64,000 nucleotides of DNA from a virus (lineage: Duplodnaviria; Caudoviricetes), in IMG/VR virus record IMGVR_UViG_3300036802_000112, positions 96,001 to 160,000 of that record; one strand, given 5' to 3'. A program made the translations under genes and the position numbers. A model generated the notes under the pieces. That model was not told where the DNA came from. It ran no database searches and saw only the letters and a program-made list of their open reading frames with translations. This document shows, one piece after another, positions 6,271 through 61,332 of the stretch; the stretch's first letter is position 1; the number at the start of each line of letters is the position of its first letter.

Positions 6271-6942
6271 ATGGGATTCGAGTTAAAAGAATTTGATTAC
6301 AAAGAGCATGTTCTATCATTAATGTATTTACATACAGGGGAGGAAAAAGTCGAAAAAGAAATTCGAGTTTCTTTTAAATTCGAATGGGAACAACCGCAAG
6401 AATTTTTCAACAAGCATTTTATGGAAGTGAAAACAGGAAAAGAAGATCAAGCGGCCGATGCATTAAAAGGCGTTTCTTTTGTAGAAGGACAAGTGAGTCA
6501 CGAAGAAATCAAAAAGTTATTATTGGATGCTGTTACAATCCATGTTCCGACTTCTGATACTTTCGGTTTACTTTGGACGATACTTGAAACGTGGAAGAAA
6601 TTAAAAATGTGTCCGTTTCACATTCAAGATTTAGACCACCCTGCTTATCCCGTTATGACTATCGTATACAATAAAGAGGTTTTCCCTTGTATGCGTAAAT
6701 TAGTAGAAACTGTATTAGTAGCAATTGGGAATGCGGAGGTTACAGAGGTTGCGAAGCAGGAAGAAGAAACAAAAGAAGAAGAGATTGATATCTTAAATGA
6801 TGAGGATGCAGAAGTTATCGAACACGAAGTAGATGACGAAGTTGCAGCATTTATGAAGCAAAAGGGAGTAAAGAAGGAAGTAAAGATTGAGCCATTAAAA
6901 GAAGCGATGCCTACATTCGAGCCAGGAGGAGACGAAGAATGA
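6271..6942 (+). CDS. Hypothetical protein with acidic C-terminus
   Basis: Start moved to ATG 6271 (after the terminator, GAGGAGAGG SD). Confidence 0.7.
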   Translation: MGFELKEFDYKEHVLSLMYLHTGEEKVEKEIRVSFKFEWEQPQEFFNKHFMEVKTGKEDQAADALKGVSFVEGQVSHEEIKKLLLDAVTIHVPTSDTFGLLWTILETWKKLKMCPFHIQDLDHPAYPVMTIVYNKEVFPCMRKLVETVLVAIGNAEVTEVAKQEEETKEEEIDILNDEDAEVIEHEVDDEVAAFMKQKGVKKEVKIEPLKEAMPTFEPGGDEE

Positions 6943-7937
6943 TTAGTTATTTATATTTCACAGATCCACATGCAAAAGGGAAATCTCCATCAACAAGAAC
7001 AGATGACTTCCCTGAAACAATCCTAAGAAAAATTGCGAAAGGTTTTGAAATTGGTCATGAGAATAACGTCGATTTCTTTATGTGCGGCGGTGACTTCGTA
7101 GATAGTGCTTATGTATCACCTAAGTTCGTTAGACGTTTAGGGAGGGTTATCAAGGAGAATTTAAAAGGAAAGAAACTCTTCTTCGTTTGGGGCAACCACG
7201 ATATCATCGCATGGAATCCAAAAACCGCAGAAGACACAGCTTTCGGTCTATTCGAAGAATTCTTTGACGATATGATTCCTTTAACACGAGAGCCAACGAG
7301 ATACACATTCAACGGTGAAGATATTTTATTATCGGGTGTTCATTCTTATGCAAACTTAGATAGACATATATTAGATGCAGAAGGAAATATCTTAGAACAT
7401 CGTAGTCGTGATTATGTTATTACAGAAGATTACGACGCTCCAGTTATTCATACAGTGCATGGATATTTATCACCGAAAGCAATCTTAGAAGATATCCCTC
7501 ACACTGTAATTGCAGAGATGTCACATACAAAAGCAACAATTACACAAACAGGTCATGAGCATACTGGATTTGCTCCTATTACACTACCAAATGGTATCGT
7601 TGTAAATCCAGGTGCATTAGGTCGTGTATTTGCATCGCATACAGAAATGAACCGTATGCCTCAGTATACTTTGAATAAAGTGCATGGCATTGGTAACGCA
7701 GAGGTTATCCCTATTCAGTGTCCAATCGCTGAAAAAGGTGATGTGGTTATGGACAGAACTGCACTGGATGAAAAGAAAGCAAGACAAGAAATTCTGTTAC
7801 AAGCAAAAGCAAATATGAACGAAGTGTTAAGTGAAATTAATATTCAAGCTGTTGAGTTACATATTGTTATGCAACGTTTTAAAGACAAAGTTGACGATGA
7901 TGTATATGCAGAAGCGAAACGAAGATTAGGAGTGTGA
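6939..7937 (+). CDS. Mre11/SbcD-like metallophosphoesterase nuclease
   Basis: TDPH, GGDFVD, GNHD, GHEH, NPG phosphoesterase motifs; near SbcC-like genes. Confidence 0.9.
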   Translation: MISYLYFTDPHAKGKSPSTRTDDFPETILRKIAKGFEIGHENNVDFFMCGGDFVDSAYVSPKFVRRLGRVIKENLKGKKLFFVWGNHDIIAWNPKTAEDTAFGLFEEFFDDMIPLTREPTRYTFNGEDILLSGVHSYANLDRHILDAEGNILEHRSRDYVITEDYDAPVIHTVHGYLSPKAILEDIPHTVIAEMSHTKATITQTGHEHTGFAPITLPNGIVVNPGALGRVFASHTEMNRMPQYTLNKVHGIGNAEVIPIQCPIAEKGDVVMDRTALDEKKARQEILLQAKANMNEVLSEINIQAVELHIVMQRFKDKVDDDVYAEAKRRLGV

Positions 7938-7971
7938 TATACACTCCTTTTTCTATTGAGGAGGAAATGAC

Positions 7972-8997
7972 ATGGAAAAGGAAATTATTAACTTTTATGA
8001 AGTATTAGGTATTAAAACAACTGCGGATGCAAAAGAAATTAAGAAAGCATACAGAGATTTAGCGAAGAAATATCACCCTGATGTTAGTGATGTTGTAGAT
8101 GCGAAAGAGAAGTTCCAAGAAATTCAGGAAGCTTATGAGATTCTAGGGAACGAAGAGAGCAGAGAAGATTATGATGCTGCACTAAAGGATCATGAAGCAA
8201 GAGTGGAAAGAAGCAAAGTGAAGTTTACTGATGTATTCCGTTCTTTCTTCACGAGTTCTGCTAATGCATTAAAAGCGTTAGATGGAAAGGATGTTGAAGT
8301 TACCGTACTCTTTACAGTAGAAGATGCATTCAAAGGAACTGAAAAAACCTTTGAATACAATCGTTTTAAATCTTGCCCTGATTGCAAAGGACACGGCGTT
8401 ATCAGTGAAAACTTAACTCCTTGTTCTGATTGTGATGGAAAAGGCGTAACACCAAAAATGATTTTAACACCGTTTGGTAAACTACAGTCTTCCGAAGAAT
8501 GTAAAAAATGCAAAGGTACCACGTATAAGAAACATTCTCCTTGTGAAACATGCATGAGAACAGGGAAAGTAACAAACAAGTCTAAAATCAAAATAGAAGT
8601 TCCAGCGGATGTTTATCATGGCAAGCAAATGATTATACATGGTCGAGGTGAATTAGGTATTCGTGGTGGATCAACAGGAGACTTAATCATCACATTCGAA
8701 CATTCACCAAGCGATGTGTATAAATTGGAATATGATTACGACATTGTTAAGAAGTTGACGATTCCTTTAAAGACAGCACTTTTAGGAGGTGAGGCTCAAG
8801 TAATAAAACCGAATGGCGAAAAAGAAACCGTTAAAATACCAAAGGCTACGTCAAATGGTTCTCGACTTGGACTAGGTAACATGGGATTATTGAATGAGAA
8901 AACAAAGCAGAGAGGGCTATGCTACGCTGAATTGGTAGTAGCGATGCCTACAGATTTATCACAATCGGAACTGAATAAGATTGGTGATATCTTGTGA
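7972..8997 (+). CDS. dnaJ: DnaJ-family co-chaperone
   Basis: J domain with HPD, four CxxCxGxG-type repeats, C-terminal domain. Confidence 0.92.
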   Translation: MEKEIINFYEVLGIKTTADAKEIKKAYRDLAKKYHPDVSDVVDAKEKFQEIQEAYEILGNEESREDYDAALKDHEARVERSKVKFTDVFRSFFTSSANALKALDGKDVEVTVLFTVEDAFKGTEKTFEYNRFKSCPDCKGHGVISENLTPCSDCDGKGVTPKMILTPFGKLQSSEECKKCKGTTYKKHSPCETCMRTGKVTNKSKIKIEVPADVYHGKQMIIHGRGELGIRGGSTGDLIITFEHSPSDVYKLEYDYDIVKKLTIPLKTALLGGEAQVIKPNGEKETVKIPKATSNGSRLGLGNMGLLNEKTKQRGLCYAELVVAMPTDLSQSELNKIGDIL

Positions 8998-9013
8998 TAG
9001 GAGGAAGAGAATC

Positions 9014-10294
9014 TTGACTACAACTTATTTGACGGGTGTGGAATTATATGATTTCCGCACCCACTCTAAAACAAAAATGAAATTCACAAGAGATATGAAT
9101 GCTCTTGTTGGTTCTAGTAGTGCTGGTAAGAGTAATGTTATACGTGGAATCATTTGGAATATTTTGAATGAACCTGCTGGTAATGACTTCATTAAACAAG
9201 GGAAGTCAGAAGCTTGTGTTATTACACATTGGTCCAATGGTTACTCTATTGAACGAGCTAGAAATAAAAGCGGAACAAAAAACGTATACATCGTACACAA
9301 AGATGGTGAAGTAGTTAACGAGTACACTGGTTTCGGAACTGGCGTACCACCTGAGGTTACAGACATTCATGGTATTAGACCTTTAGCGAACGGTGTGTAT
9401 TTCAACTATGCAAACCAATTAGAATCAGCATTCTTATTATCTGAGTCTCCAAAGGTTCGTGCTGAAGTTATTGGTAACTTAGAAGAATTGGGTCGTATTG
9501 ATGAAGAGTTAACGAAAATCAATAGTGACATTAAAGCTGATAAAAAGTTATACAAAGTAATATCAGAAGAAGTTGCTAGTTACAATACTTCTATAGAAGA
9601 GTTAGAAAAGAAAATCGAATTAAAAGCACAGAAAATCGAAGTGCTCAAAGAGTTTTGTGGTAGCGTAGAAGAACAAGAACGCATTCAAAATACGTTATCA
9701 AAACACAACGAACGCTTAGCAACATTAACAGAAGAAATTAATCAAGCAGCTCGCACAGTCATGACAGCGAATAAGATATTAGAAAACTGGGATGACAACT
9801 TAGAGAGCAATATTCAAACGTATCGTAAATTAGAAGGTTACGTAAGTCGATTAGGAGAAATACAAGTTGAAATGAGTTCTATTTCATTCTTAAAAGATGA
9901 GGCATTATCAGAACTAATTAGATTATGCGAGGAAACAGAAGGCTCCATGCAATCGTTCCAAGCATTCTCTAATTACGCAAAACGCTTAGAAGGTATTCAT
10001 GATTCCAGACAACGAATAGAATCTCAAATGCCTTCTGAGAGAATTGCGAGTATGAATTTTGATGCATTAGATAAAGATATCGAACATTTCCGATATGTAC
10101 AAAAACACCTGAGTCGATTACAAGACATCGATTCGGAAGTAGTGCGTAATAAACAAGAAACAGAAAAGGCTACAAACGAAATCGTCAACCTAGTAGATAA
10201 ATTAGTGGAACTACTACATGATGAAAAAGTATGCCCAACTTGTACGCAAACAACAGAAAACATTACAACAGAACAAATCAAACAATTAGTATAA
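9014..10294 (+). CDS. Rad50/SbcC-like ATPase, N-terminal half (Walker A, coiled coil, zinc hook)
   Basis: GSSSAGKSN Walker A, Q-loop-like ANQ, coiled coil, terminal CPTC; GGAGG SD favours TTG at 9014. Confidence 0.88.
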   Translation: MTTTYLTGVELYDFRTHSKTKMKFTRDMNALVGSSSAGKSNVIRGIIWNILNEPAGNDFIKQGKSEACVITHWSNGYSIERARNKSGTKNVYIVHKDGEVVNEYTGFGTGVPPEVTDIHGIRPLANGVYFNYANQLESAFLLSESPKVRAEVIGNLEELGRIDEELTKINSDIKADKKLYKVISEEVASYNTSIEELEKKIELKAQKIEVLKEFCGSVEEQERIQNTLSKHNERLATLTEEINQAARTVMTANKILENWDDNLESNIQTYRKLEGYVSRLGEIQVEMSSISFLKDEALSELIRLCEETEGSMQSFQAFSNYAKRLEGIHDSRQRIESQMPSERIASMNFDALDKDIEHFRYVQKHLSRLQDIDSEVVRNKQETEKATNEIVNLVDKLVELLHDEKVCPTCTQTTENITTEQIKQLV

Positions 10295-10312
10295 ACTAGG
10301 AGGAATTTTATA

Positions 10313-10564
10313 ATGGCTACAGAATATGCAAAAATCAAACAAGCGGTGGAATTACAAAAGACAAAGAAAGCAACAGGAGAAGCTAGACTAGTTTCGTTAA
10401 GTGAAGAAGAAACTCGTATTTATGCAGATATCGAACGTGAAACAGGAAAGAAAGTAACATCGAAAGAAGAATTAGAAGTAATGAACGAACAATCACAAAA
10501 GGACATCGCAGATAAGATTCGTAAAATGAAAGAAATCTTAGATGCGGAAGGAGTGGCGTATTAA
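10313..10564 (+). CDS. Small coiled-coil protein between the SbcC halves
   Basis: 83 aa helical ORF with AGGAGG SD; TAATG overlap with the next gene. Confidence 0.7.
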   Translation: MATEYAKIKQAVELQKTKKATGEARLVSLSEEETRIYADIERETGKKVTSKEELEVMNEQSQKDIADKIRKMKEILDAEGVAY

Positions 10565-11217
10565 TGGAGGTTGCGACGTTACCAACCAACAAGGAAGTGA
10601 TTCGTGCTGCCAAGGATATGATCCAGCAGCACGAACAAGATTTAGTTGAGTTAGAACGATTAAAAGTGGAGTTAGTTAGAAAGACAGCGCAACGTGACGA
10701 AATCACACCTCGTATTGAATTACTAGAAAAGGTACGAGTATTCATGCAATCATTAGCGGAAGCGACTCGTGATGAAATCATGTCAGGTTTACAACACGTT
10801 GTTACGATATGCTTACAAAGTGTATTCGGGCCACACCTTCGCTTTGAAATAGAAGTAGAAACAAAACGAAACAATACAGGAATCGAGTTCTACATTGTGG
10901 ATGAATCAGGAGATGTGCCAGTACGATTAAAACCAGAAGGTAACATGGCTGGTGGAGAATTAGATACAATCTCTATTGGTTTACGATTCGGATTACTGAA
11001 AGTATTAAACCCTTCTCCAGAAGGACCAGTATTCCTTGACGAACCAGCTAAGATGATTTCGGGAGATAGAGTACATTCTATTGCGAATCTCTTAAAAGAG
11101 CTGTCTAAGATGTTTGATAAACAAATCATCATGGTATCTCACCACGAAGCATTAATTGATGTTGTAGACAATTCTATTTATTTCAAAAGAGAAAACGGCG
11201 TAACGGTCTGCGAATAA
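10564..11217 (+). CDS. Rad50/SbcC-like ATPase, C-terminal half
   Basis: Signature MAGGE, Walker B VFLDEP, H-loop VSHH. Confidence 0.88.
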   Translation: MEVATLPTNKEVIRAAKDMIQQHEQDLVELERLKVELVRKTAQRDEITPRIELLEKVRVFMQSLAEATRDEIMSGLQHVVTICLQSVFGPHLRFEIEVETKRNNTGIEFYIVDESGDVPVRLKPEGNMAGGELDTISIGLRFGLLKVLNPSPEGPVFLDEPAKMISGDRVHSIANLLKELSKMFDKQIIMVSHHEALIDVVDNSIYFKRENGVTVCE

Positions 11218-12220: not shown

Positions 12221-12260
12221 AAACAACAGATACAGTAATGTATCTGTTGTTTACTTTTTT
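12221..12260 (+). terminator. Rho-independent terminator
   Basis: AAACAACAGATACA-gtaa-TGTATCTGTTGTTT plus T run. Confidence 0.8.
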
Positions 12261-12294: not shown

Positions 12295-13338
12295 ATGAAA
12301 ATGGAACGAGTTAAAGGACTATTATTTGAGGTAGCAAAGAGTAATATGGATACGAGATTACAAGGGTTCTTCATTGATCCAGATAAAGGTATGGCACTTG
12401 CAGGGCACAGAAGAATTTACGGTCATGGCGATTGCTTAGTACGTGCAATGGGTGATTTTGATATGCCACAAAAATACGGATACCGTCCAGGATACTATGA
12501 TTATAGTAAAGATGATTTCTATGCAGATCAACCAGGTCTTTACGGAAAGCAAGTTGAGGGAGACAGATACATGGTTGGACCAGAAGAATCTGATATGATT
12601 TTCGGTCAAGCATTCGAAAAAATCGAAGACGGTTTCTCTGTATTAGTAAACCCAAAAATCATTTGTGAGTTCATTGAGAATTTCACAAAATTCAATGGCT
12701 TTGCAAATAAGAAATTAAATATGCAAGTATTTAACGGAATGTCAAATGTAGGTCATTTCACTGGAAGAATCGAAACGAATCCAAATACAGGTGAAATCGG
12801 AATTGTTATCGCCAATAAATACTTCTGCCATATTGATAAAAAGTACTCTTTACTTAACCCTGACCACATCAGAGAAGGTGCTTATGTAGTTGCGGAAATG
12901 GTAGGAGTTGTGGAAGAGAAACGTGTAGTTAGATTACTTCGTATGTTCAAAAGTGGCATCCGACTTGCGATTCAGGATTTCAGAAATGGATTGATGTTAG
13001 ATAATGCTGCACCGTATTCTTTACATGAAGAAACAGATAACGGAATCACAAAACAAGGAATTATGGATGTTCCGTTCTTAGAAAGACAGTTTGACCCTAA
13101 TGATCCACAAAGCCAAAATGCATACTTGAAAGCTCCTGTATTACATTTTGACTTAGATACATTCTACCGTGCATTAAAACCAATGGAAATGCATAGAGTA
13201 GCTGAAATCCATTTTAAAGATTGTATCTCTCCAGTTATGATGCGAACAATTAACGAAGGAGAACCAGGAGAAATTGCGGTAGAGTCGTTGATAGGAACGT
13301 CGTCTCCGTATAGAAGAGGAAAGGTGTGGACTCCGTGA
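12295..13338 (+). CDS. Putative diverged DNA polymerase III beta (sliding clamp)-like protein
   Basis: DTRLQGFFIDPDKGMALAGHRRI resembles DnaN (TRxxLxG...ATDGHRL); C-terminal FDLDTFYRALKPM...AEIHFKDCISPVMM resembles DnaN domain III. Confidence 0.45.
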   Translation: MKMERVKGLLFEVAKSNMDTRLQGFFIDPDKGMALAGHRRIYGHGDCLVRAMGDFDMPQKYGYRPGYYDYSKDDFYADQPGLYGKQVEGDRYMVGPEESDMIFGQAFEKIEDGFSVLVNPKIICEFIENFTKFNGFANKKLNMQVFNGMSNVGHFTGRIETNPNTGEIGIVIANKYFCHIDKKYSLLNPDHIREGAYVVAEMVGVVEEKRVVRLLRMFKSGIRLAIQDFRNGLMLDNAAPYSLHEETDNGITKQGIMDVPFLERQFDPNDPQSQNAYLKAPVLHFDLDTFYRALKPMEMHRVAEIHFKDCISPVMMRTINEGEPGEIAVESLIGTSSPYRRGKVWTP

Positions 13339-13694
13339 TGAGGTATCAATTAATAACAGGAGAAGGAGATATAAACCGCAAGCTCGGCGTAGACTTACAT
13401 AAAGTCTATAGCCGGGCTTGCGCGGGTTTTAACCCGTTAACGTATCTACCTTCAGATTATGTACCGAATTTTGAATCTCTGTATGAGGAATATTGTGATA
13501 TGTATATCCAAAAAGTAACCGATGCAGATTCATTTTTCGAATCAATCAAAGAGATGGCTACCTCGGAAGGGGGTGATAATGTAAGTGGTAGTATTGTAGG
13601 GAAAGCAGAATTCCTGAACATTTTATTTATGACCAATCACTTGTTTTTCTTAGATGGCGAATTGATGAATTCGATAGTACTGGAGGTATGGTAG
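13338..13694 (+). CDS. EVW-family paralog 1
   Basis: MRYQL...NSIVLEVW*; TGATG overlap with the upstream gene. Confidence 0.8.
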   Translation: MRYQLITGEGDINRKLGVDLHKVYSRACAGFNPLTYLPSDYVPNFESLYEEYCDMYIQKVTDADSFFESIKEMATSEGGDNVSGSIVGKAEFLNILFMTNHLFFLDGELMNSIVLEVW

Positions 13695-13697
13695 GAG

Positions 13698-14066
13698 ATG
13701 GTAAGGAACGATGAGTTAGCGGAATATATGTATGGAATAGAAGAAGCAGAAGCAATAACAATGTTAATTGATATTTATAGAAATATAGCAATATCATCAG
13801 AAATAACAATTCCTGATATTGACATTCTATACAATATTTTTAGAGAGCGATGGGTGGATAAAACATATGACTTCGTGGTTGCAAATGCAGATGCATATGC
13901 ACTCGATTTAACTGAATTTACAAAGACAAATTACATTTACAAACTCGAAGAAGTTGGTTTTGTAATATTAAAAGTAGACGATGTGCACGACATATTGAAT
14001 CGGATGCAATTTTCGTTTCGTAGTAAAGAAGAAATATGGAATACAGCGGTGATAGAAGTATGGTAA
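13698..14066 (+). CDS. EVW-family paralog 2
   Basis: Ends NTAVIEVW*. Confidence 0.8.
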   Translation: MVRNDELAEYMYGIEEAEAITMLIDIYRNIAISSEITIPDIDILYNIFRERWVDKTYDFVVANADAYALDLTEFTKTNYIYKLEEVGFVILKVDDVHDILNRMQFSFRSKEEIWNTAVIEVW

Positions 14067-14461
14067 GTTATGGACTTTCAACAAGAATTGATGAAGAAAT
14101 AAGCTCGAAGATTGACTTCGAGCTTATTTCTTCTATTTACAAAGAATTAACAGCTATGTATTACGTACCTAGTTCCGAGGCTATTTTTAATCATTATAAT
14201 ATGGTATTGGAACATAGATTAACAGAACTACAGGCCACGTTATATCCAGATGATGTTTATGAAGGGAAGCCAGGACAAGCGTATTCTCCAACCGTCCTTC
14301 CTGATTACGTGACAGCAGATTTACAGCAATACATACATATGGAGCCTGTAACTTTAGAAGACGTAGAATCATGTTTAGAATGTTATCACTTGTTCTTCAT
14401 TAGGGAAGAAAGAGATTATCAAAATGAATATATTAACCCAATTATATTAGAGGTGTGGTAG
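14060..14461 (+). CDS. EVW-family paralog 3
   Basis: MVSYGL...NPIILEVW*. Confidence 0.8.
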   Translation: MVSYGLSTRIDEEISSKIDFELISSIYKELTAMYYVPSSEAIFNHYNMVLEHRLTELQATLYPDDVYEGKPGQAYSPTVLPDYVTADLQQYIHMEPVTLEDVESCLECYHLFFIREERDYQNEYINPIILEVW

Positions 14462-14473
14462 GGAGAGAATATT

Positions 14474-14875
14474 ATGTTGCCAAACGTGTTAGTTGAACAT
14501 TCGGAGTTGTTAATTAATGATATGCAAATGTTTATATTTCAAGAATATAAATTGATTTGGGATGAATGTATATCGAAACGAAGAACGGAAGTTCCTTCAA
14601 TATATACGATTGCAGAACGCATTTACGAGGTTCTACAAGACAAAATCACAAAGCTGCTACAGGCTAAGTATACATTTAATATCGATAACTTCAACGAAGA
14701 AGATTTCCAAAAAACCGTGGCAATATATTCATTTTGGTTTGACCAAAAGACAGAAGGTAATGATTACATATTTGAATCTTTACTTCATGAAATGACTAAA
14801 TTTTTCTGTTTGCATCAATTATTTCACGAAAGGGATGGGGAGTTAATAAATCAACCTATCTTGGAGGTGTGGTGA
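14474..14875 (+). CDS. EVW-family paralog 4
   Basis: Ends DGELINQPILEVW*. Confidence 0.8.
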   Translation: MLPNVLVEHSELLINDMQMFIFQEYKLIWDECISKRRTEVPSIYTIAERIYEVLQDKITKLLQAKYTFNIDNFNEEDFQKTVAIYSFWFDQKTEGNDYIFESLLHEMTKFFCLHQLFHERDGELINQPILEVW

Positions 14876-14877
14876 TA

Positions 14878-15243
14878 TTGTATGAACTGATAAACCCATT
14901 GGATGTTATCGGTAACTTAGCTTATGTAGCGCTTAATTCAACGTATTTATTTATCGTTTCGGAAAGATGTTATAACCCAAATCATATACCTACGATTGAA
15001 ATGATTCACAATCACTTTGTGGATCATTTCATTCAAGAGTTAGTGTTAGAAGTTATACAAAGAGAAAGTTTCGAAACATTAGGTGCTGATGATTTAGACG
15101 ACTTCTTACATCAAGTTAAGAACAAAAAATACCATCCGTTTATACCTGACATTATTGAACTACGAAATATGTTAGAAGCATGTTATATGACTTTTATAGA
15201 GGACGGTGAAGTTCATAATCCAATTATTGTGGAGGTGTGGTGA
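14878..15243 (+). CDS. EVW-family paralog 5
   Basis: TTG start, (M)YELI...DGEVHNPIIVEVW*. Confidence 0.8.
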   Translation: MYELINPLDVIGNLAYVALNSTYLFIVSERCYNPNHIPTIEMIHNHFVDHFIQELVLEVIQRESFETLGADDLDDFLHQVKNKKYHPFIPDIIELRNMLEACYMTFIEDGEVHNPIIVEVW

Positions 15244-15662
15244 TGTATCAACTTATACATCAGAATGACCGGAAAAAGAGCGCTTTAGAAGAATCAGCAG
15301 AAGCCATATTTTATTCAGTATACGGAGAGTTAGGAGAAGCAATACTGGATGAATTGTTTGGAGATTACCCGTATATCTTTATAGGGGATTTAGTAGATAA
15401 AGTGTATCAAGAATTGTATTTCGAGGAATACACAAACTTAATAGATGAATCAATCTTGAGAGGTGATCACGAAATATATGCACTATCAAAAGATGATTAT
15501 ACATTACAAGTATACGGAGGAAATATCGGTTTATATTATGAACCTGCTTTTGAAGTGTCTGATATAAAAACAATGATAAGTCAAATGTTGTGCGAACAGA
15601 ACATAGCATACTTAGATTATGACTTCACGATGCAAAATGAAATTATATTAGAGGTGTGGTAA
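15243..15662 (+). CDS. EVW-family paralog 6
   Basis: MYQLI...NEIILEVW*. Confidence 0.8.
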   Translation: MYQLIHQNDRKKSALEESAEAIFYSVYGELGEAILDELFGDYPYIFIGDLVDKVYQELYFEEYTNLIDESILRGDHEIYALSKDDYTLQVYGGNIGLYYEPAFEVSDIKTMISQMLCEQNIAYLDYDFTMQNEIILEVW

Positions 15663-16126
15663 TGGTCAATGTAAATGAATTAATGCTTATGAATCCAGAT
15701 GACATTGTAGGTATTATGGATGCTATGAATTTAATAACAAAGGAGACATTCGATAGGTTCGTCACGTTATTAACACATTGGTACAAAAGAGAATCACTGA
15801 TGGAAGATAACATTCCAAATTTATTTCCAATCTTCCAGATGACAGATCCAATCATAGACGACTTATGCGAAATATTTATAGAGAGTATAGGGTGGAGGGA
15901 GTTGGGAGAACAACAGATGACTCATGAATTCGAACGGAATCCGGAAGACAAACTAATTATCAAGAATCAATTTGTCGATGGTTACGATTCGGTATATTCA
16001 ACAAACATGGTCAGGGATACAGAACGAGTTTTTAATTCTATGAACCTTGTACATAGATGGGATTCTACATATGTAGGAGGTAAAGATAACTTAGTAACAG
16101 GAGGAGTTGTATTAGAAGTATGGTAG
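15662..16126 (+). CDS. EVW-family paralog 7
   Basis: Ends GGVVLEVW*. Confidence 0.8.
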   Translation: MVNVNELMLMNPDDIVGIMDAMNLITKETFDRFVTLLTHWYKRESLMEDNIPNLFPIFQMTDPIIDDLCEIFIESIGWRELGEQQMTHEFERNPEDKLIIKNQFVDGYDSVYSTNMVRDTERVFNSMNLVHRWDSTYVGGKDNLVTGGVVLEVW

Positions 16127-16557
16127 GTACATATGCATTATCAGTAGAAACGGAAGAAATAGAATACGATGTAATCAAACCACAATACGTATCATGGTTT
16201 GAAAGGGTAATTATGAATTGGTATCAAGAGTTCGGTAGGTTAACCCCCAAATACCTACCGACTGTTGTGGATATTTTAGATGATAGCCTTCATCCAATAG
16301 GTGGAACTGCATCAGAAGCATTCGCTCTTTTAGAACAATCTGTTCAAGTTGAGTTTTGTGGTATTGATACATTTCCAGAAGACTTAGGGAATTGGACAGA
16401 TGACCACTACTTATACTTTGAAGACCAAGTGGATTTAACTGATTACGAAGTAGATTTATTTAAAGATATAGAGAAACTGTTAGAAACGAAAGGATTAACA
16501 TACTCTAGATATAACCCCGAAACAGCGCAAGTATCAAGTGTAATCGAGGTGTGGTAA
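16120..16557 (+). CDS. EVW-family paralog 8
   Basis: MVGTYAL...SSVIEVW*. Confidence 0.8.
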   Translation: MVGTYALSVETEEIEYDVIKPQYVSWFERVIMNWYQEFGRLTPKYLPTVVDILDDSLHPIGGTASEAFALLEQSVQVEFCGIDTFPEDLGNWTDDHYLYFEDQVDLTDYEVDLFKDIEKLLETKGLTYSRYNPETAQVSSVIEVW

Positions 16558-17001
16558 ATGTATCAATTAGCGGTTAATAATTACAGTGAAGTGCCATTTA
16601 AAATAGTAGATAAGGACCCGGGAACCGTGCAAGAATTCTTCTTTTTAATTTCTGGATTGTATCATGACTATTGTATGTGCAGAGAAGACCTCCCTAGTCC
16701 AAAAGACATGCTAGAAGAAGATCGTAATTTTTATCCAAAATCAAACGAAACAGTAAACGGATTTTTAGATGGTATGATTCATGAAATGATGCATAGACGA
16801 AATACTTTCTTAGATGATTTTATAGAAGTATTACCAGAAGACGCGGACACTGATTCTTTAGCTGATTTTTTAGATGGATGTTGGGATGATATGAAGCCTT
16901 ACTATGAGGATGAAATACGTATCGCATTAGAAGTACTAGGATACGCATATAAAGGCGAATGGGGAGAAGTAAGAAATACTTATGTAATCGAGGTGTGGTA
17001 A
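16558..17001 (+). CDS. EVW-family paralog 9
   Basis: MYQLA...GEVRNTYVIEVW*. Confidence 0.8.
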   Translation: MYQLAVNNYSEVPFKIVDKDPGTVQEFFFLISGLYHDYCMCREDLPSPKDMLEEDRNFYPKSNETVNGFLDGMIHEMMHRRNTFLDDFIEVLPEDADTDSLADFLDGCWDDMKPYYEDEIRIALEVLGYAYKGEWGEVRNTYVIEVW

Positions 17002-17370
17002 ATGTACGAGATACAAAAGACAGAGGTAGAATTCATCTTTGTGCCGGATGATTTCTACCACACTTTTAAAGATGTTATAAAAACGTGGTATGAAAATTTC
17101 GAATACTGTTTCCCGACACGGATACCAGAGGCACAAATATTTAGTATGGACTACCAAATTGGTTTCGAATTTGAAAGTGGCTTAATATGGTTTGCAGGTG
17201 CAATATTAGAAATTGCGGAACCAGACAATGAATTTGCTTCCATGCATGATTTAAGTGTAATGGAACAGATGTGGTTCGAAGAGGATATGCGTACATTATT
17301 AGATGCAGAAAGTATCACTTATATGTACGACGGTGAACTTAAAAATAGTGTTATTTTGGAGGTATGGTAG
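17002..17370 (+). CDS. EVW-family paralog 10
   Basis: MYEI...DGELKNSVILEVW*. Confidence 0.8.
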   Translation: MYEIQKTEVEFIFVPDDFYHTFKDVIKTWYENFEYCFPTRIPEAQIFSMDYQIGFEFESGLIWFAGAILEIAEPDNEFASMHDLSVMEQMWFEEDMRTLLDAESITYMYDGELKNSVILEVW

Positions 17371-17372
17371 GT

Positions 17373-17906
17373 ATGTATTTAAGTACAGAAGTAGCAAATC
17401 ATGAATTTCAATTTTTCTGTTTAGAAACAAATTCAATAGAAGAAATCACGAAAGATCTTAGAGAAGTTTATAAGGCGATTGTGAAAGAGACTGATAATGT
17501 ACCAAACTTATTCGATATCAGATTGTATAGTTCAAACTTAATCAACTACGTCTTTTTTGAAAGAATCGCCTTAGGGAAGGAAAGTGCCTTAGATTATTAT
17601 ACAGACGGAGAAGGTATTATAGAACACATACAAGATATCATGAAAAGCTATTCGAAAGAAGAATTTCATCATGGAATCGAAAGGTGTATACAAGAATTCC
17701 CAACATTAGAATCTACCGAGGATATAATAGAACTTTTCATGGTTGACGCTTTATATATATTCAATCTGAATCAGTGGAGGTACCACGATATAGAATGGTA
17801 TCCTGCTTACAACATGTTGCTGCTATCGGATAAATTAGGAGACATTTTGAATTCGCAGGGTAAGGTAGAATTCGATGTTAACAATCCAATGATAGAGGTG
17901 TGGTGA
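17373..17906 (+). CDS. EVW-family paralog 11
   Basis: MYL...NNPMIEVW*. Confidence 0.8.
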   Translation: MYLSTEVANHEFQFFCLETNSIEEITKDLREVYKAIVKETDNVPNLFDIRLYSSNLINYVFFERIALGKESALDYYTDGEGIIEHIQDIMKSYSKEEFHHGIERCIQEFPTLESTEDIIELFMVDALYIFNLNQWRYHDIEWYPAYNMLLLSDKLGDILNSQGKVEFDVNNPMIEVW

Positions 17907-17907
17907 A

Positions 17908-18393
17908 ATGAATCAATTAACATTACTTTCGGATGTTAATCAAGTTATAGACTTCGACTTTTTCGAACACAAAGGAAATAAGTTGGAAGAATTCAAAGAA
18001 GAATTGTTGGGTTCCTATGAACAAGCTTGTGAGTATTGGGTTTATGATGAAGGAGAAGAACAACTTCCCACGCTTTCTGTTATAGGCGATATAGCTTGCA
18101 GGATGTATGTAGAAGAAATTGTGTTTAAATGTTATGCAGATGGATCTATAGCAGGGAATATAGATGTCAGAGAAAATATAGATGAACATCAATGCGACCA
18201 ATTAGATGAAATACAAGACTCTATCCATGATGAGTTCCATCATAATAGAAGTTTCGGAATGGGTATCGGTAACATAAGAGATTACTTCAATGACATCGAA
18301 AAGTTATTGAACTTATGTAACTTAACATATAGAAAGGATGATGATAGAGCGAATATATGCAACGTTAATTCACATGTTGTGGAGGTTTGGTGA
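17908..18393 (+). CDS. EVW-family paralog 12
   Basis: MNQL...NSHVVEVW*. Confidence 0.8.
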   Translation: MNQLTLLSDVNQVIDFDFFEHKGNKLEEFKEELLGSYEQACEYWVYDEGEEQLPTLSVIGDIACRMYVEEIVFKCYADGSIAGNIDVRENIDEHQCDQLDEIQDSIHDEFHHNRSFGMGIGNIRDYFNDIEKLLNLCNLTYRKDDDRANICNVNSHVVEVW

Positions 18394-18860
18394 TGTATCA
18401 ATTACAGACTGATGTAAAGGAGTTTCCGTTACATTTTATACCGAAAGAAAAAACAGAAGCATTCATTAAGGCAATACTGTCTGCATACAAACGTATATAT
18501 ACAGTTATGAGTAAAGTGAGTGGAGTGAATTCATTCCATTACATAGAACCCTGGGGAGACATTGGCGTCTTTCTAGGGGATTTTTATGTAATGGGATGTT
18601 GCTATTACGAGACAGGAGAAGAGTATGCATACGAAAAAGCAGTAGCAAAAATAGATGCTATGGGAGATGATGGCGCATTCGAGTTAAGTGCAATGTATAA
18701 CGACGAGTGTTTTGAAGATTGGAGAAGTGAGTTCATTGATGATATCACAGCGGTTCTAGATATGCACAACTATTCATATTTCGATCCAGCTTCCGACCCG
18801 TACGCTGTCAATCTTGATTGTGTAGAAGTGAACAATACTCATATTATATCAGTATGGTAA
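18393..18860 (+). CDS. EVW-family paralog 13 (SVW variant)
   Basis: MYQL...NTHIISVW*. Confidence 0.8.
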   Translation: MYQLQTDVKEFPLHFIPKEKTEAFIKAILSAYKRIYTVMSKVSGVNSFHYIEPWGDIGVFLGDFYVMGCCYYETGEEYAYEKAVAKIDAMGDDGAFELSAMYNDECFEDWRSEFIDDITAVLDMHNYSYFDPASDPYAVNLDCVEVNNTHIISVW

Positions 18861-18874
18861 AGGAGAAGATAAAG

Positions 18875-19348
18875 ATGCAACAATTTATGTTACCACAAAA
18901 CTATGTTAGAGGTTATGATAACGCCCCTTATCGTTTGATATTCAATGTTCCAGAAGATGAGTTTAGAAAAGTTATGCGAGATATTTATATAGCTACTCAC
19001 ACAACGAACAGACCACCATACTTCGAAAGAATTTTATCGGAGCTTATTGAGATAGGTATGTTCTCTCGTGTGTTCTTAGAATACGCCAAAGAGAATCCTG
19101 AAAAATTCGATATGTCTATAAAACGCATAGATGAATTATATTATTGGGTGGTGGAGAAAGGTGTGAATGATGAATCAATTACACAAGAATTATTAAGTTT
19201 TGCAGGGTATTACTTCTGCGAAGAGTTCGAAAACGATATCCGTATCTTCTTGAACGATTTTAATTACAGTTTTTTAGAAAGAGATTATCACCATCAACAT
19301 GCGGATGAAGCTGCAATTAGAAACTCATGTATTATCCCTGTTTGGTGA
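18875..19348 (+). CDS. EVW-family paralog 14 (PVW variant)
   Basis: Own AAGGAG SD; ends NSCIIPVW*. Confidence 0.8.
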   Translation: MQQFMLPQNYVRGYDNAPYRLIFNVPEDEFRKVMRDIYIATHTTNRPPYFERILSELIEIGMFSRVFLEYAKENPEKFDMSIKRIDELYYWVVEKGVNDESITQELLSFAGYYFCEEFENDIRIFLNDFNYSFLERDYHHQHADEAAIRNSCIIPVW

Positions 19349-19397
19349 TATGTGAGTTTTTCTTTTTTAGTAGTGCACAGAGAAGGGGTCTTGCAAA

Positions 19398-20189
19398 ATG
19401 ACATTAGCAATTAAAGACAGTAAATGGATTAAGCGTTTTGACGTCGCTAAACTATTAGAGGATTCTTTAGACATGTCGTATTGGAAAGGGGATGATTGTA
19501 CAAAAGGAGTTTTCTTTACAGATGAATACGGTTACGCATTAAATAAAGTAGTAGCTATACGAGTTCATCATGACGAAGATGCTCCAGAAGTCTTCTACTC
19601 ATTTAATGAGAAGGATGACGAAGAATGTGGACCAGTCGTAACAGAGTATCCATATGAAGAGTTATCGTTATTACCTCGTAAACATCATTTACTATTTGAG
19701 GATACAAAAGTAGAGAAGAAAAATCTAGACAAAGTATTCGAAAGAAAAGAGGTGTTAAAATCAATTCAAATTGAACCGAAAACAATTGTGGAGAAGATCG
19801 AAGAGGAAATTCCAAATAAACGTCAACGTGATCGAACACAGTTGAAAATAAAGGTTCGGGATAACGAAGTGTTGTTTGAAGCACATAAGAAAAAGAAAGT
19901 TACTTTTTCGGAAATCATTAAGTATGATACAATTACAACGCGAGACATTATTGAACTACAACAACCTACATATGATTTAAGTCATTGGGAGACAGATAAA
20001 AAGACCAATGAAATAAACGGGGCAATCAATGCACATACGTTATGCTATTTACTTCATGTGTTTCAGGATTTTAATTCTGTATTTTTGCACTTTGAAGAAA
20101 ATAGAGTTTTTATCGTAGGTAATCCAAATGATGTTAATATAAATGGAACGCCTACAATAGAAGTCGTTGTTAGTTTAATGAAGCTTTAA
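19398..20189 (+). CDS. Second putative beta-clamp-like protein
   Basis: KGVFFTDEYGYALNKVVAIRV; INAHTLCYLLHVF..SVFLHF; C-terminal VVSLMKL resembling DnaN VVMPMRL. Confidence 0.45.
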   Translation: MTLAIKDSKWIKRFDVAKLLEDSLDMSYWKGDDCTKGVFFTDEYGYALNKVVAIRVHHDEDAPEVFYSFNEKDDEECGPVVTEYPYEELSLLPRKHHLLFEDTKVEKKNLDKVFERKEVLKSIQIEPKTIVEKIEEEIPNKRQRDRTQLKIKVRDNEVLFEAHKKKKVTFSEIIKYDTITTRDIIELQQPTYDLSHWETDKKTNEINGAINAHTLCYLLHVFQDFNSVFLHFEENRVFIVGNPNDVNINGTPTIEVVVSLMKL

Positions 20190-20212
20190 TGTGTTTTAGA
20201 GGAGGAAATGGT

Positions 20213-23200
20213 GTGAGTTGGTACAGTAAGGTTAATAAATATATAGATGATAACTTAATGGATTTCATCAAAGAGTTCTTCGGAGCGAATGCAAATACAG
20301 AGAAAATCGCCAGAGCTATTCGTGTTAGTCCTGCGCCATGTTGTGGTCATAACGATTGTTTCTCATTCGCAACTGAGAAAAATGCATTCAACTGTTTCTC
20401 TTGTAGAAAAAGCGGCAACAGAATTAAATCGTTGCAATACTTATTCGGTAATGAAAAAGACGCGAATAAGGCACTTTCTAAATGGGCAGGCGTTGAGTAC
20501 CTAGAAGATCGTGTATATGACGAACAAACGAGAAAGAAAATGGAGAAGGAAGAAAGACTGCAAGAGTTATATAGAATTGCTATTCTCCATTACACGTTCC
20601 AAATGCAAGACGAAACGGAATCTACGGCTTTAGCTATGCAAACAGGGAAAGAGCATGGTTGTCGTAAACACCAACTTGATTTCCTAAAGAAATATAAAGT
20701 TGGGTATTCAAGTGGTTGGGACTTCCTTCGCAATGCATTAGAAAAATCACCGAAGGGCTTCACAAAAGAAGAAATAGAAGAAGCGAAAAGTTTCATCTCT
20801 ATTCCAGAAGGATACTTTGTTTACCCTTATTATGATAAAGCAGGAAACTTAATTCGTATCAATACTAAATTGTTCGAAAGAAAATGTTTAGGTTCTTACG
20901 ATAGAGATACAGGAAGGTATGGTTACGATTGTGGCTATAGAACAAAAGACCTTTCCAAGAAATCACGAGAAACACATGAGCATCTAAAGAAACATAAGAT
21001 GGCCGGAGATGGTTTTTCACGCGGTGAGAAAACAAATGCATTTTACTTTGATCCAGAATCTATACAAAGAAAGCGATTCGCTATTCTTGTGGAAGGTGAA
21101 AATGATGTAATCTCGGCTGACGAAGAAATGGCAAATCTCCCTGAAAGTTATCGAAGAGATTTCGCTATCATCGGTTTAGGCGGTCAAATGGATGAAGAAA
21201 GTTTTGAGAGTCTATTCCTTCGTCAATTCGAAAAGATTTATGAGTGTTTCGACCACGACGATGCAGGAGATAAATACAGAAATTTGTTAGATGAAAAACT
21301 ACCTGACGTTCCTGTATACTCTATCCTATTCGATGACGATATCAATGATATCGATGCATGGCTTAAATCTCATTTGTATAATCCAGGTGATTTCAAAGAT
21401 GCTATTGATAATGCAGCGTACAGAGATACAAAGCATTATATCATCGAACGAGAAACATCAAAGCACCATTGGAGATTAAAGAACAGACAATTCGAAATTA
21501 CTTTCGATGTTTCCAAAGCGAATCATCAGAAAGGTACCATTGATGGAACAATCAGTGTTTACAAAGGCGGTCAACCTACGTTCAAGAAAACTGGAGATTT
21601 AATGAACACGAAGATTGACCCAGCTTTAAACACAACAAAATTGTTATTCGCAGAAGAAGTAGATAAGTATTACAACGATGTTGAGATGGTAGCGGATAAA
21701 CCGAAGCGTTCGTATTGGGAACTGATTAATATATTTAAATACACAAGTAAACAAAACCAAGTCATTAGACAGTTAGCTTGGTACTTACATCAGAAAGATA
21801 TAAAAGAATTCCAAGCTGCAGCATCAAAACTAGGTGCGTTAGGTCAAGAAGTGAAGGCACAAATTCTACAAGAAGTAAATTCTATAGAAAACCAACAGTT
21901 CGACCCAAACATTACACCGCCAATTATTACGTTATCTCAGTTCTTTAACATTCCAAACAATGACGCTTTCTTCTACTTCTCGAAAATTATTAATGAAGAA
22001 GATGTTACGAAAGCTGTTCCTTGTTTAATAACAAACAAGAAAGAAGAAATCCGTTTGGACCTGATGAAGAAGAGTGATCCGCAAAGTATCTTGCTGATTA
22101 AAAATAAATATCAACTTCCAACTGAAGTTCCGATAACAATCATGAACCAAAATGAAGTTTCTTTACAACGTTATTGGGTAGAACGTTGGAAGAATGAACA
22201 ATTAGATCCTGCGGAGTATGACCCGTCTAAATTAATTAAAGAAATTGAAGATTTCATTAGAGGTTCGTATTACCTGCATGATGATACGTTAAAAGTATTA
22301 TCGTTATGGATCTATTCAACATATTTCTATATGTTATTCCAAAGCGGATTCCCTTACTTATTAATCACCGGGGAAAAAGGAACGGGTAAATCAACTGCCG
22401 ATTTCCTAATCTACTTGTTATCTCTTAATCCTAAGTTTGCACTGCACATGTCGGAATCATCATTATTCCGTGCAATCAGTCAGCAGGGCGGAACGTTTAT
22501 CCTGGATGAGTTAGAGAACCTAACAGACAAGAAATCAGTTGATGGAAATGCATTTGCGACAATCCTAAAAGGTGGGTATTCTAACTTCGGTAGAATTTAC
22601 AGAACAAATATGGAAAACGGTATTGCGATGATTGAGGAACATTCAGCGTTTGGCCCGAAAGTAATTTCAAACATCAACGGATTAGATGATGTAATCGGTG
22701 ACCGTTGTATCTTCATTAAAACTGCGCGTGCACCGGAATCGAAATTGAAATTCTTGAAAGACCCGCAAATTTATAGAGAGCAAGAACGTTCCAAAGCACA
22801 CTCAATCACTTCGAGATGTGTAATATCAGCGTTAGAATACTTCCAAACTGTAAACGAAATTTACAACGATGCAAATAACAAAGTAATGACTGGTAATGCT
22901 CGTCTATCGCAAATCATCTTACCGTTAGTAGCGATGGCTAAATTTGTAGGTGGAGATTACGAAGAAGCTTTAATGCGATTCTACCGCGACGATATCGCAC
23001 CTGTAAAAGAAGAGTTATCTGTTTCTACACAAGAGGGTATGGTTAAGAACATCTTGAAAATTGTTGCACAAGAGCTTACAGGTATCAGAGAATCGAAATG
23101 GGCAACGAATGAAAAGATACACACGCATACTGTTCCAATCACATATCATCGTGAAACTGGCATATTTGAAATGGACTTACTGCACTTTATGGTACTTGGT

Positions 23201-23461
23201 GAAGAATCGAATGACGGTATAGAACTTGAATTGAAATCTTTACGCAATACAATTAAGATGATATTCAAAAGCGCAACCGACTTTAAAAACAGTGCGACAC
23301 CAAAGAATTTAACCATCCATGATGAGTCATTACAAAGAAGGTTAAATAATCAGAAGAACATCAGAACAACGTTATTTAGATTTAACGTCAACGATTATCT
23401 GAGTGAATCAGAAAAGCAAACGTTGCATAATAACTCTGTTCCAGAAACATCACTATTCTAA
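20213..23461 (+). CDS. DNA primase-helicase fusion (Zn finger, TOPRIM, P-loop NTPase)
   Basis: CC..H..C...FNCFSC Zn finger; VEGEND and FDHDDAG TOPRIM motifs; GEKGTGKS Walker A, ILDE Walker B. Confidence 0.88.
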   Translation: MSWYSKVNKYIDDNLMDFIKEFFGANANTEKIARAIRVSPAPCCGHNDCFSFATEKNAFNCFSCRKSGNRIKSLQYLFGNEKDANKALSKWAGVEYLEDRVYDEQTRKKMEKEERLQELYRIAILHYTFQMQDETESTALAMQTGKEHGCRKHQLDFLKKYKVGYSSGWDFLRNALEKSPKGFTKEEIEEAKSFISIPEGYFVYPYYDKAGNLIRINTKLFERKCLGSYDRDTGRYGYDCGYRTKDLSKKSRETHEHLKKHKMAGDGFSRGEKTNAFYFDPESIQRKRFAILVEGENDVISADEEMANLPESYRRDFAIIGLGGQMDEESFESLFLRQFEKIYECFDHDDAGDKYRNLLDEKLPDVPVYSILFDDDINDIDAWLKSHLYNPGDFKDAIDNAAYRDTKHYIIERETSKHHWRLKNRQFEITFDVSKANHQKGTIDGTISVYKGGQPTFKKTGDLMNTKIDPALNTTKLLFAEEVDKYYNDVEMVADKPKRSYWELINIFKYTSKQNQVIRQLAWYLHQKDIKEFQAAASKLGALGQEVKAQILQEVNSIENQQFDPNITPPIITLSQFFNIPNNDAFFYFSKIINEEDVTKAVPCLITNKKEEIRLDLMKKSDPQSILLIKNKYQLPTEVPITIMNQNEVSLQRYWVERWKNEQLDPAEYDPSKLIKEIEDFIRGSYYLHDDTLKVLSLWIYSTYFYMLFQSGFPYLLITGEKGTGKSTADFLIYLLSLNPKFALHMSESSLFRAISQQGGTFILDELENLTDKKSVDGNAFATILKGGYSNFGRIYRTNMENGIAMIEEHSAFGPKVISNINGLDDVIGDRCIFIKTARAPESKLKFLKDPQIYREQERSKAHSITSRCVISALEYFQTVNEIYNDANNKVMTGNARLSQIILPLVAMAKFVGGDYEEALMRFYRDDIAPVKEELSVSTQEGMVKNILKIVAQELTGIRESKWATNEKIHTHTVPITYHRETGIFEMDLLHFMVLGEESNDGIELELKSLRNTIKMIFKSATDFKNSATPKNLTIHDESLQRRLNNQKNIRTTLFRFNVNDYLSESEKQTLHNNSVPETSLF

Positions 23462-23464
23462 CGA

Positions 23465-23496
23465 AAAGACCGCTAAGTATACTTAGTGGTCTTTTT
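23465..23496 (+). terminator. Rho-independent terminator
   Basis: AAAAGACCGCTAAG-tata-CTTAGTGGTCTTTTT. Confidence 0.7.
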
Positions 23497-60849: not shown

Positions 60850-61332
60850 TTAGAAGGGTAAGTCGTCGTCCGAGATATCAATTGGTTGTCCAACATTACT
60901 AAACGGGTCATCGTTTTTGTTTTGATTACCAAAACCGTTACCTTGACCTTGATTGCTAAATCCGCTATTTCCTTGATTGCTGAAATCACCGTTACCACGC
61001 GCTTCAGTTGTATTTCGCGGCTCTAAAAACTGTACGCTCTCCGCAAGAACTTCTGTTACATATACACGCTTGCCATCTTGCCCATCATAGTTACGAGTTT
61101 GAAGACGTCCATCAACACCAGCTAAACTACCTTTCTTTAGATACTTAGCTACGTTCTCTGCTTGTTTACGCCAAATTACACAGTTGATAAAATCAGCTTC
61201 ACGATCACCTTGTTGATTTGCAAATGCACGATTTACAGCTAGTGTAAAAGTAGCCACTGCAATTCCATTTGGTGTGTAACGTAAATCAGGATCTTTCGTT
61301 AGTCGTCCTACTAAAATCACTCTATTCATCAT
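60850..61332 (-). CDS. ssb: Single-stranded DNA-binding protein, bacterial type
   Basis: [23 protein letters not shown]...DISDDDLPF, Bacillus SsbA-like. Confidence 0.95.

Follow-up and report, generated by a model that had tools for sequence, protein, structure and literature searches.

The DNA considered here, which we call the window, is a 64,000-nucleotide stretch made up of bases 96001-160000 of the 174,193-bp IMG/VR virus record IMGVR_UViG_3300036802_000112, for which direct terminal repeats are on record. At positions 13338-19348 of the window, on the + strand, lie 14 back-to-back open reading frames (ORFs), of which 12 end in the residues EVW, the thirteenth in SVW and the fourteenth in PVW. 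This run of VW-ending genes had been pointed out in an earlier note made from the letters alone, and our re-reading of the ORFs confirms it. With the most plausible starts chosen, the products are 118-177 amino acids (aa) long and acidic, with isoelectric points (pI) of 4.05-4.76; the median pI across 92 members of the family described below is 4.4. Chance is excluded as the source of these endings because W and V account for 0.9% and 6.7% of residues genome-wide, respectively, and none of the 165 other non-overlapping ORFs of at least 100 aa in the whole 174-kb genome ends in W.

The array does not stand alone (Table 1). Given that terminator-like hairpins bound them on both sides, a gene for a 347-aa protein and the 14 array genes look like one transcription unit. 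The genes for a 263-aa protein and a primase, which are followed by a third such hairpin, look like the next. As discussed below, the 263-aa protein is predicted to be a sliding clamp, and a model of the 347-aa protein offers a lead in the same direction.

Table 1. Features of the array and its flanks (positions in the window; L009 is a related locus introduced in the text)
Feature	Position	Strand	Remarks
Terminator-like hairpin, then T run	12221..12252	+	Upstream of the unit; AAAGGAG ribosome-binding site and ATG at 12295 downstream
Putative clamp-like protein, 347 aa, first gene of the unit	12295..13338	+	Stop overlaps first array start (TGATG); Atlas model
Family member 1, 118 aa, EVW	13338..13694	+	Ortholog L009_01, 65% identity
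Family member 2, 122 aa, EVW	13698..14066	+	ORF, family profile, L009 ortholog
Family member 3, 133 aa, EVW	14060..14461	+	ATG start within the V-W codons of member 2; profile, L009 ortholog
Family member 4, 133 aa, EVW	14474..14875	+	ORF, family profile, L009 ortholog
Family member 5, 121 aa, EVW	14878..15243	+	TTG start, backed by L009 ortholog starting MYEV
Family member 6, 139 aa, EVW	15243..15662	+	ORF, family profile, L009 ortholog
Family member 7, 154 aa, EVW	15662..16126	+	ORF, family profile, L009 ortholog
Family member 8, 145 aa, EVW	16120..16557	+	ORF, family profile, L009 ortholog
Family member 9, 147 aa, EVW	16558..17001	+	ORF, family profile, L009 ortholog
Family member 10, 122 aa, EVW	17002..17370	+	Member chosen for the AlphaFold2 model
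Family member 11, 177 aa, EVW	17373..17906	+	ORF, family profile, L009 ortholog
Family member 12, 161 aa, EVW	17908..18393	+	ORF, family profile, L009 ortholog
Family member 13, 155 aa, SVW	18393..18860	+	Separate AGGAG site, 14 nt downstream, for member 14
Family member 14, 157 aa, PVW	18875..19348	+	Last of the array; no coupled gene after it
Terminator-like hairpin and T run	19319..19361	+	Overlaps the end of member 14
Sliding clamp (predicted fold), 263 aa, two-domain, PCNA/gp45 size	19398..20189	+	AlphaFold2 model, VIA-align, Foldseek
Primase, 1090 aa, zinc ribbon and Toprim, SLF-COOH end	20189..23461	+	Pfam/PHROG scans, comparison with relatives
Third terminator-like hairpin with T run	23463..23496

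Pairwise BLAST comparisons among the 14 proteins are weak (best E-value 4e-6), and the mean column identity is only 21% for the 14 members and 13% for 83 family members. We asked whether the resemblance is limited to the last codons, an outcome that the earlier note, together with unrelated predicted folds, had named as one that would refute its reading. We cut the last 12 residues from each protein and searched with a profile built from the other members, omitting the protein in question and its ortholog from L009. Each of the 14 tail-less bodies still ranked first against 230 decoy ORFs of the same genome; 13 of them had E-values of 6e-5 or lower and the weakest reached 0.011, compared with 0.045-1.4 for the best decoys, with orthologs from further relatives still present in the training sets. 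The profiles thus indicate that the 14 proteins are true homologs over their whole length rather than by their tails alone. Run against the 174,193-bp genome, the family profile matches exactly the 14 array ORFs (E-values of 1e-35 to 2e-17) and nothing else. In the 83-member alignment, the positions that are invariant or nearly so comprise a helix-1 Tyr, a Pro that follows and the V-W at the end, and M-Y/N-Q/E-L starts and an N seven residues before the end W are common; the shared features listed in the earlier note are thus real.

The conserved end is longer than its last two residues. When positions are counted back from the final residue, 92 distinct members carry W at position 0 (92/92), V at -1 (90/92), V, I or L at -4 (85/92) and N at -7 (81/92). 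With one exception, every member seen has its stop immediately after W, array-final genes without a downstream start among them, which fits recognition of a free C-terminus. The exception, L030:8078-8530 from another related locus, ends in FWSPQV and does not carry the N-x-x-aliphatic motif. This gene occupies position 11 of the L030 array, beside a second copy resembling position 12.

The residue at -2, the E of EVW, appears to have a different origin. The DNA at the junctions reads GAGGTGTGG-TRA-(0-2 nt)-ATG, in which GAGGTG, a core Shine-Dalgarno sequence, falls 5-8 nt before the next start, and this start often overlaps the stop (TGATG, TAATG). At most junctions, GAGGTGTGGTRATG serves as Shine-Dalgarno sequence, stop and start. 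We surveyed 52 junctions from six loci and called a junction coupled if the next start lay between -8 and +4 nt of the stop. Among the 41 coupled junctions, residue -2 is E in 29, G in 11 and Q in one, with GAG used for 25 of the 29 E codons and GTG for 21 of the 41 V codons, compared with 24.5% of E codons (GAG) and 16% of V codons (GTG) in the whole genome (p = 4e-12 and 2e-7, respectively). The 11 uncoupled junctions, where the next gene has its own downstream site or a distant overlap or where the array ends, have E in five, Q in two and S, P, A and G in one each; three of the five E codons are GAA, and GTG accounts for three of ten V codons, the eleventh junction having ATT. E or G at -2 differs from other residues between coupled and uncoupled junctions (Fisher p = 0.001), and all these p-values are optimistic in that orthologous junctions are not fully independent.

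We conclude that E or G at -2 is largely the Shine-Dalgarno sequence of the next coupled gene (GAGGTG, GGAGTG, AAGGTG) and not a requirement of the protein. An acidic residue at this position is not needed, because the relative L031 has K, R, G or S there; several of its codons are AAG, AGG or GGN, which keep a purine-rich site, and others are CGC or TCG. The V-W end behaves differently. [VI]W with an immediate stop is kept at all 52 junctions surveyed, including 11 of 11 uncoupled ones and those of array-final genes. Because it persists at uncoupled junctions and because the V codon varies synonymously (GTG, GTA, GTT, GTC), VW is best read as a protein-level constraint, and N(-7) and the aliphatic residue at -4 are likewise conserved even though they lie upstream of the ribosome-binding site. 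The description of the array as constant ends around a variable acidic core is therefore real in outline, but the E of EVW is largely a nucleotide-level feature and only [VI]W, N(-7) and the aliphatic residue at -4 belong to the protein. Reading ‘EVW’ as a single motif is partly misleading. What is found instead is a clean case of dual coding, in which residue -2 (E, G, K or R) is set by the ribosome-binding site of the next gene and V-W by protein function.

Coupled operons in which a Shine-Dalgarno sequence sits in the last codons of the upstream gene share with this array the overlap of stop and start (TGATG, TAATG) and the placement of the site within the preceding coding sequence. The array differs in that the same three codons are used in this way at 13-14 consecutive junctions and coincide with a conserved protein terminus, so that one constraint lies on top of another. 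The 347-aa protein ends in GKVWTP, and its AAGGTGTGG provides the first array gene with a ribosome-binding site, by the DNA device also used within the array. Its homologs end in GMVYTK or GKVYTE in relatives and in GRVCLP in L010, and W is not conserved there.

The family also occurs outside this genome. The earlier note had proposed an all-vs-all alignment and profile followed by a database search for tandem arrays, and this approach recovered both a family and collinear arrays in uncultured phage contigs. When 1.84 billion representative proteins were searched exhaustively with HMMER, 55 matches had E-values of 1e-3 or lower, and all of these end in [E/G/S/K/R/N]-[V/I]-W except for one spurious 468-aa protein. 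The contigs encoding these matches are fragments of uncultured phages that share one layout, in which SbcC-like genes are followed by a protein of ~350 aa, the array, a protein of ~250 aa, a primase of ~1100 aa and a UvsW-like helicase. Complete arrays hold 14 genes in the window, L009, L030 and L031 and 13 in L032, and the best matches between arrays are collinear. The window and L009 arrays correspond one-to-one at 39-65% identity, and positions 1-3, 5-7 and 13-14 can still be recognised in L030, L031 and L032 at 24-32% identity.

Given 13-14 orthologs in a collinear order that is kept at low identity, the cassette is old and fixed, and neither recently expanding nor rapidly turning over. 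This finding goes against the earlier description of an expanded arsenal, as the array consists of 13-14 distinct orthologs that hold the same order down to 24-30% identity. The fixed number and order suggest 14 non-redundant roles. At the same time, comparison with L012 (24-27% identity for array members vs 50% for the primase) indicates that the array members evolve faster than the neighbouring primase. All five complete arrays have the ~350-aa putatively clamp-like gene before them and the ~250-aa clamp and ~1100-aa primase genes after them; homologs of the 347-aa protein precede the array in L009, L010, L030, L031 and L032, and partial contigs are consistent with this bracketing wherever an array end is visible.

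The clade is rare. Among GenBank phages, neither a DNA search with the array nor a tblastn search with the primase gave a match, a pattern search of IMG/VR found no close relative of the 347-aa protein, and the distant primase loci L016-L023 hold no family members. One relative genome, of 175,348 bp, is present in IMG/VR. GTDB genomes contain no relative of the clamp and so give no clue to the host, for which strong Shine-Dalgarno usage suggests a low-GC Gram-positive bacterium.

That the family could not be recognised was already stated in the earlier note, and our searches agree. Neither a Pfam scan of all 14 proteins nor a PHROG scan of ten of them gave anything above the cut-off, and the family profile found no PDB sequence below an E-value of 0.35. 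AlphaFold2, given member 10 and the 83-sequence alignment, returned a confident model (predicted local distance difference test, pLDDT, 87.6; predicted template-modelling score, pTM, 0.80) with helices at 16-36, 55-72 and 86-102, a bridge at 43, a hairpin at 107-114 and an eight-residue tail at 115-122. The protein looks winged-helix-like in this model, by the order of its elements only (helix 1, strand, helix 2, helix 3, hairpin). Comparison of the model with 48,161 chains using VIA-align gave a best Z of 5.2, with some winged-helix domains at 3.5-4.9, which is the level of noise. Foldseek found no match in the PDB, and a fold search of BFVD found none either; in the ESM Atlas the template-modelling (TM) scores were at most 0.43, with winged-helix proteins at a noise level of about 0.4. 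Winged-helix interaction domains, such as the C-terminal one of kleisins and the winged-helix domain of SelB, share the order of elements with member 10, whereas the matches to them are at noise level, the helices here are much longer and the acidic surface argues against DNA binding. The mapping to a characterised domain that would have told against a new family did not emerge from the Pfam, PHROG, PDB or fold searches. We regard the family as undescribed and new to the databases searched, and as an undescribed fold family, in that it has a confident model while Pfam, PHROGs, PDB, BFVD and the ESM Atlas offered nothing that matches.

More can be said about the neighbours, for which Pfam and PHROG gave no match (263-aa and 347-aa proteins) and a sequence-profile search of the PDB gave none for either family. 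The AlphaFold2 model of the 263-aa protein has an overall pLDDT of 56.8, with 70-85 in the C-terminal half and a poorly modelled N-terminal domain. When this model was compared with the PDB using VIA-align, the top 40 chains were all sliding clamps (Z of 12.0-7.8), after which the scores dropped to 5.0 and 4.5; the alignments covered 113-172 residues over residues 12-263. The kinds matched include beta clamps, PCNAs, herpesvirus processivity factors (UL44), subunits of the 9-1-1 complex and T4 gp45. Foldseek gave 360 PDB matches at E-values of 1e-3 or lower, and the best 50 of these 360 are all sliding clamps. The modelled structure thus shows the 263-aa protein to have a sliding clamp fold. 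For the 347-aa protein, the ESM Atlas holds a model of the exact sequence (pTM 0.64, pLDDT 0.56) that lies nearest to clusters of PCNA, beta clamp, Hus1 and Rad9 (TM by target 0.59-0.63), and we take this as a lead that the protein may be clamp-like.

The genome is of the myovirus type, as judged by matches to tail sheath and baseplate proteins, and the cassette is part of its replication and recombination module. The genome carries SbcCD-like genes, a DnaJ homolog, helicases, a single-stranded DNA-binding protein (SSB) and the primase. The primase ends in SLF, which is invariant in every relative (L009, L012, L030, L031 and L032, with ends such as PETSLF, TEGSLF and TDTSLF). The bacterial clamp-binding motif is QL[SD]LF, and the SLF-COOH end resembles it and could be a second clamp-docking tail.

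Given these observations, the reading that we favour, tentatively and as a possibility that may well prove wrong, is that the 14 proteins are adaptors that dock on a clamp through a plug they have in common and that differ in their bodies. The genes form a fixed cassette of small acidic paralogs, which appears to be one transcription unit with the 347-aa gene and is under tight translational coupling. The tail N-x-x-[V/I/L]-x-x-[V/I]-W-COOH would be the common docking peptide, inserting into the hydrophobic pocket for clients on one of the sliding clamps of the phage itself, much as archaeal PCNA-interacting protein (PIP) boxes and the tails of T4 gp43, gp33 and gp55 do. Through its variable body, every paralog would then link a cargo or activity different from the others to the DNA-bound clamp, giving a phage-specific tool-belt. 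Clamps are known to gather many clients that have a short motif in common and are otherwise unrelated. We favour the proposal because clamp-like genes bracket the array, the tail is PIP-like, T4 offers a precedent, the chains terminate strictly after W and the array shares a unit with the 347-aa gene. The protein-level constraint on VW, the constant number and order of the genes, and the other aromatic C-terminal ends in this genome (SLF of the primase, DDDLPF of the SSB) also speak for it. A shared docking partner for the constant C-terminus, as raised in the earlier note, is therefore plausible, and the two bracketing genes would be the concrete candidates. A more elaborate version, which we think rather unlikely as a whole, has two phage clamps and 14 fixed adaptors joined by [VI]W-COOH, with each adaptor recruiting a different phage or host enzyme, so that a phage without a recognisable DNA polymerase or clamp loader could put together its machinery for replication, repair or transcription on its own clamp. 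If clamp docking is correct, 14 adaptors dedicated to its own clamp would have arisen in this phage as one family, with a number and order that stay constant throughout a whole clade, and the system would show how a large phage without a recognisable polymerase organises its DNA transactions.

The conserved positions of N-x-x-[VIL]-x-x-[VI]-W-COOH are spaced as in the PIP-box Q-x-x-psi-x-x-theta-theta (positions 1, 4, 7 and 8), and the tail is at the extreme C-terminus, where all archaeal PIP motifs are found (PMC6881253), next to a gene for a protein of predicted PCNA/beta-clamp fold. Of confirmed PIP motifs, 43% do not have one of the aromatic residues, and many are without either the Q or one aromatic (PMC6881253). 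In our pattern test the spacing fits, whereas N for Q and V for the first aromatic are non-canonical; the array also differs in having W as an invariant last residue and in a motif that comes straight after a folded domain and might not be disordered. In T4, the clamp gp45 binds short C-terminal tails, interchangeable and both acidic and hydrophobic, of gp43 (the polymerase), gp55 and gp33 (PMC2988020). Here, too, short hydrophobic tails at the extreme C-terminus are common to several proteins, and a phage-encoded clamp lies near Rad50/Mre11-type genes (the SbcCD-like genes at 6939-11217), as it does in the gene order of T4. The T4 protein gp33, too, is small and acidic and has a C-terminal tail of this kind. 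The differences are that the window has 14 paralogs, all of one family, together with two clamp-like genes and a V-W end in place of an acidic, L/F-rich tail, and searches with the members found no sequence or fold match to gp33.

Our confidence stays at this tentative level because the docking role of the tail, the clamp as its receptor and the different cargos of the bodies are inferred, because the tail is fairly confidently modelled in the monomer and because the motif match is loose. A prediction of the complex between the 263-aa clamp and member 10 (ipSAE of 0.00 and 0.21, below the mark of 0.32) was made without controls and counts neither way. Several observations weigh against docking. 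In the monomer model of member 10, mean pLDDT is 86 for residues 111-120 and 70 for residues 121-122, and the tail may pack with Y30 and P42 as an internal structural element rather than stand as a free peptide. The resemblance to a PIP-box is loose given that N replaces Q and V replaces the first aromatic, and an i, i+3, i+6, i+7 pattern is also just amphipathic. The winged-helix label of member 10 comes from element order only, and its fold matches are at noise level (best Z 5.2). On the side of the receptors, the clamp assignment of the 347-aa protein is a single low-confidence Atlas model (pLDDT 0.56), and an hhalign comparison of the 347-aa and 263-aa family profiles found nothing. Finally, Pfam searches of the genome detected no DNA polymerase A, B or III alpha and no beta clamp, the PF13177 search found no clamp loader, and many large ORFs, when scanned with Pfam or PHROG, yielded no polymerase that the clamps would serve.

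The main rival to clamp docking is a structural one. V-W would be an internal keystone of the fold, packing with the helix-1 Tyr and the Pro, and the 14 proteins would be distinct accessory subunits of the replication and recombination machinery, possibly of one equimolar hetero-oligomer, with no docking of tails at all. We judge this unlikely but well worth weighing, as Y, P, V and W, which alone are invariant or nearly so, are typical structural residues, the monomer model gives the tail moderate to high confidence, tight translational coupling with fixed number and order fits stoichiometric subunits, and the cassette is in the replication module. A core residue, however, would be expected to drift to F, L or Y, and yet W is kept in every one of the 92 members at a mean column identity of 13%; extra residues after a keystone should be tolerated, and yet the chain ends after W in all but one member. 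This explanation also leaves the PIP-like register and the clamp bracketing unaccounted for. The conserved end could instead be a nucleotide signal only, a ribosome-binding site with stop and start copied with each duplication, and for residue -2 that is correct, in view of the GAG and GTG enrichment at coupled junctions, the triple use of the junction sequence and the change to K or R (AAG, AGG) in L031. For V-W it is largely refuted and, as a full account of the array, very improbable, given the uncoupled junctions, the synonymous variation of the V codon, the conservation, beyond the ribosome-binding site, of N(-7) and the aliphatic residue at -4, and homology that spans the whole protein.

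Two further explanations look towards the host. The earlier note had suggested an anti-defence or host-takeover arsenal. On this view each acidic paralog would inhibit a different host protein, some perhaps as DNA mimics, and the constant ends would serve folding or a shared host partner. Small, acidic proteins that belong to no known family and diverge faster than the primase would suit such a role. However, the array has 13-14 one-to-one orthologs in conserved order, without the copy-number variation usual for arms-race arrays, and it is located inside the replication module as one unit with a putatively clamp-like gene rather than in an early or terminal-repeat region. No member matches an anti-defence structure, an anti-CRISPR match of the member 10 model being noise (Z 3.4). 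The anti-defence part of the suggestion is thus weakened, host takeover is still compatible with the data, and we consider the arsenal as a whole quite unlikely. It is less probable still, in our estimation, that the tails target a host hub, either the pocket of the host beta clamp or the pockets that recognise the SSB tip DDDLPF-COOH, and so divert or inhibit replication and repair proteins of the host. With an aromatic residue bearing the terminal carboxylate and a hydrophobic residue before it, the tail does resemble both the tip of SSB and beta-clamp motifs of the C-terminal kind, DDDLPF is retained by the SSB of this phage, and a phage inhibitor of the host beta clamp (7evp) is among the PDB matches of the clamp model. 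Against this, QL[SD]LF fits the SLF end of the primase better than it fits VW, and a single host pocket would hardly account for 14 conserved paralogs.

Other genes of the genome have ends or arrangements that are worth recording. Three + strand proteins of unknown function outside the window (genome positions 61140-61394, 67890-68420 and 69318-70223; L027) end in KEELF, NRELF and NKELF, and these E-L-F-COOH proteins may represent another class of shared C-terminal tail. The SSB gene (60850-61338 of the window, - strand) matches phrog_44 with an E-value of 8e-66, and its DDDLPF end is the canonical bacterial tip. A full-length DnaJ homolog (7972-8997, + strand), with J domain, CXXCXGXG zinc-finger and C-terminal domain, is flanked by the SbcD-like and SbcC-like genes; it was considered as a receptor for the array tails and set aside, as nothing speaks for it beyond its location 4 kb upstream. 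The SbcC/Rad50-like ATPase appears to be split into an N-terminal part of 437 aa (8981-10294) and a C-terminal part of 217 aa (10564-11217), ~270 nt apart on the + strand. L030 and L032 have a 426-aa AAA_23 gene followed by small genes, so that the split may be conserved. In the head region, outside the window, the genome also carries an ORF of 2244 aa (genome positions 75381-82115, - strand).

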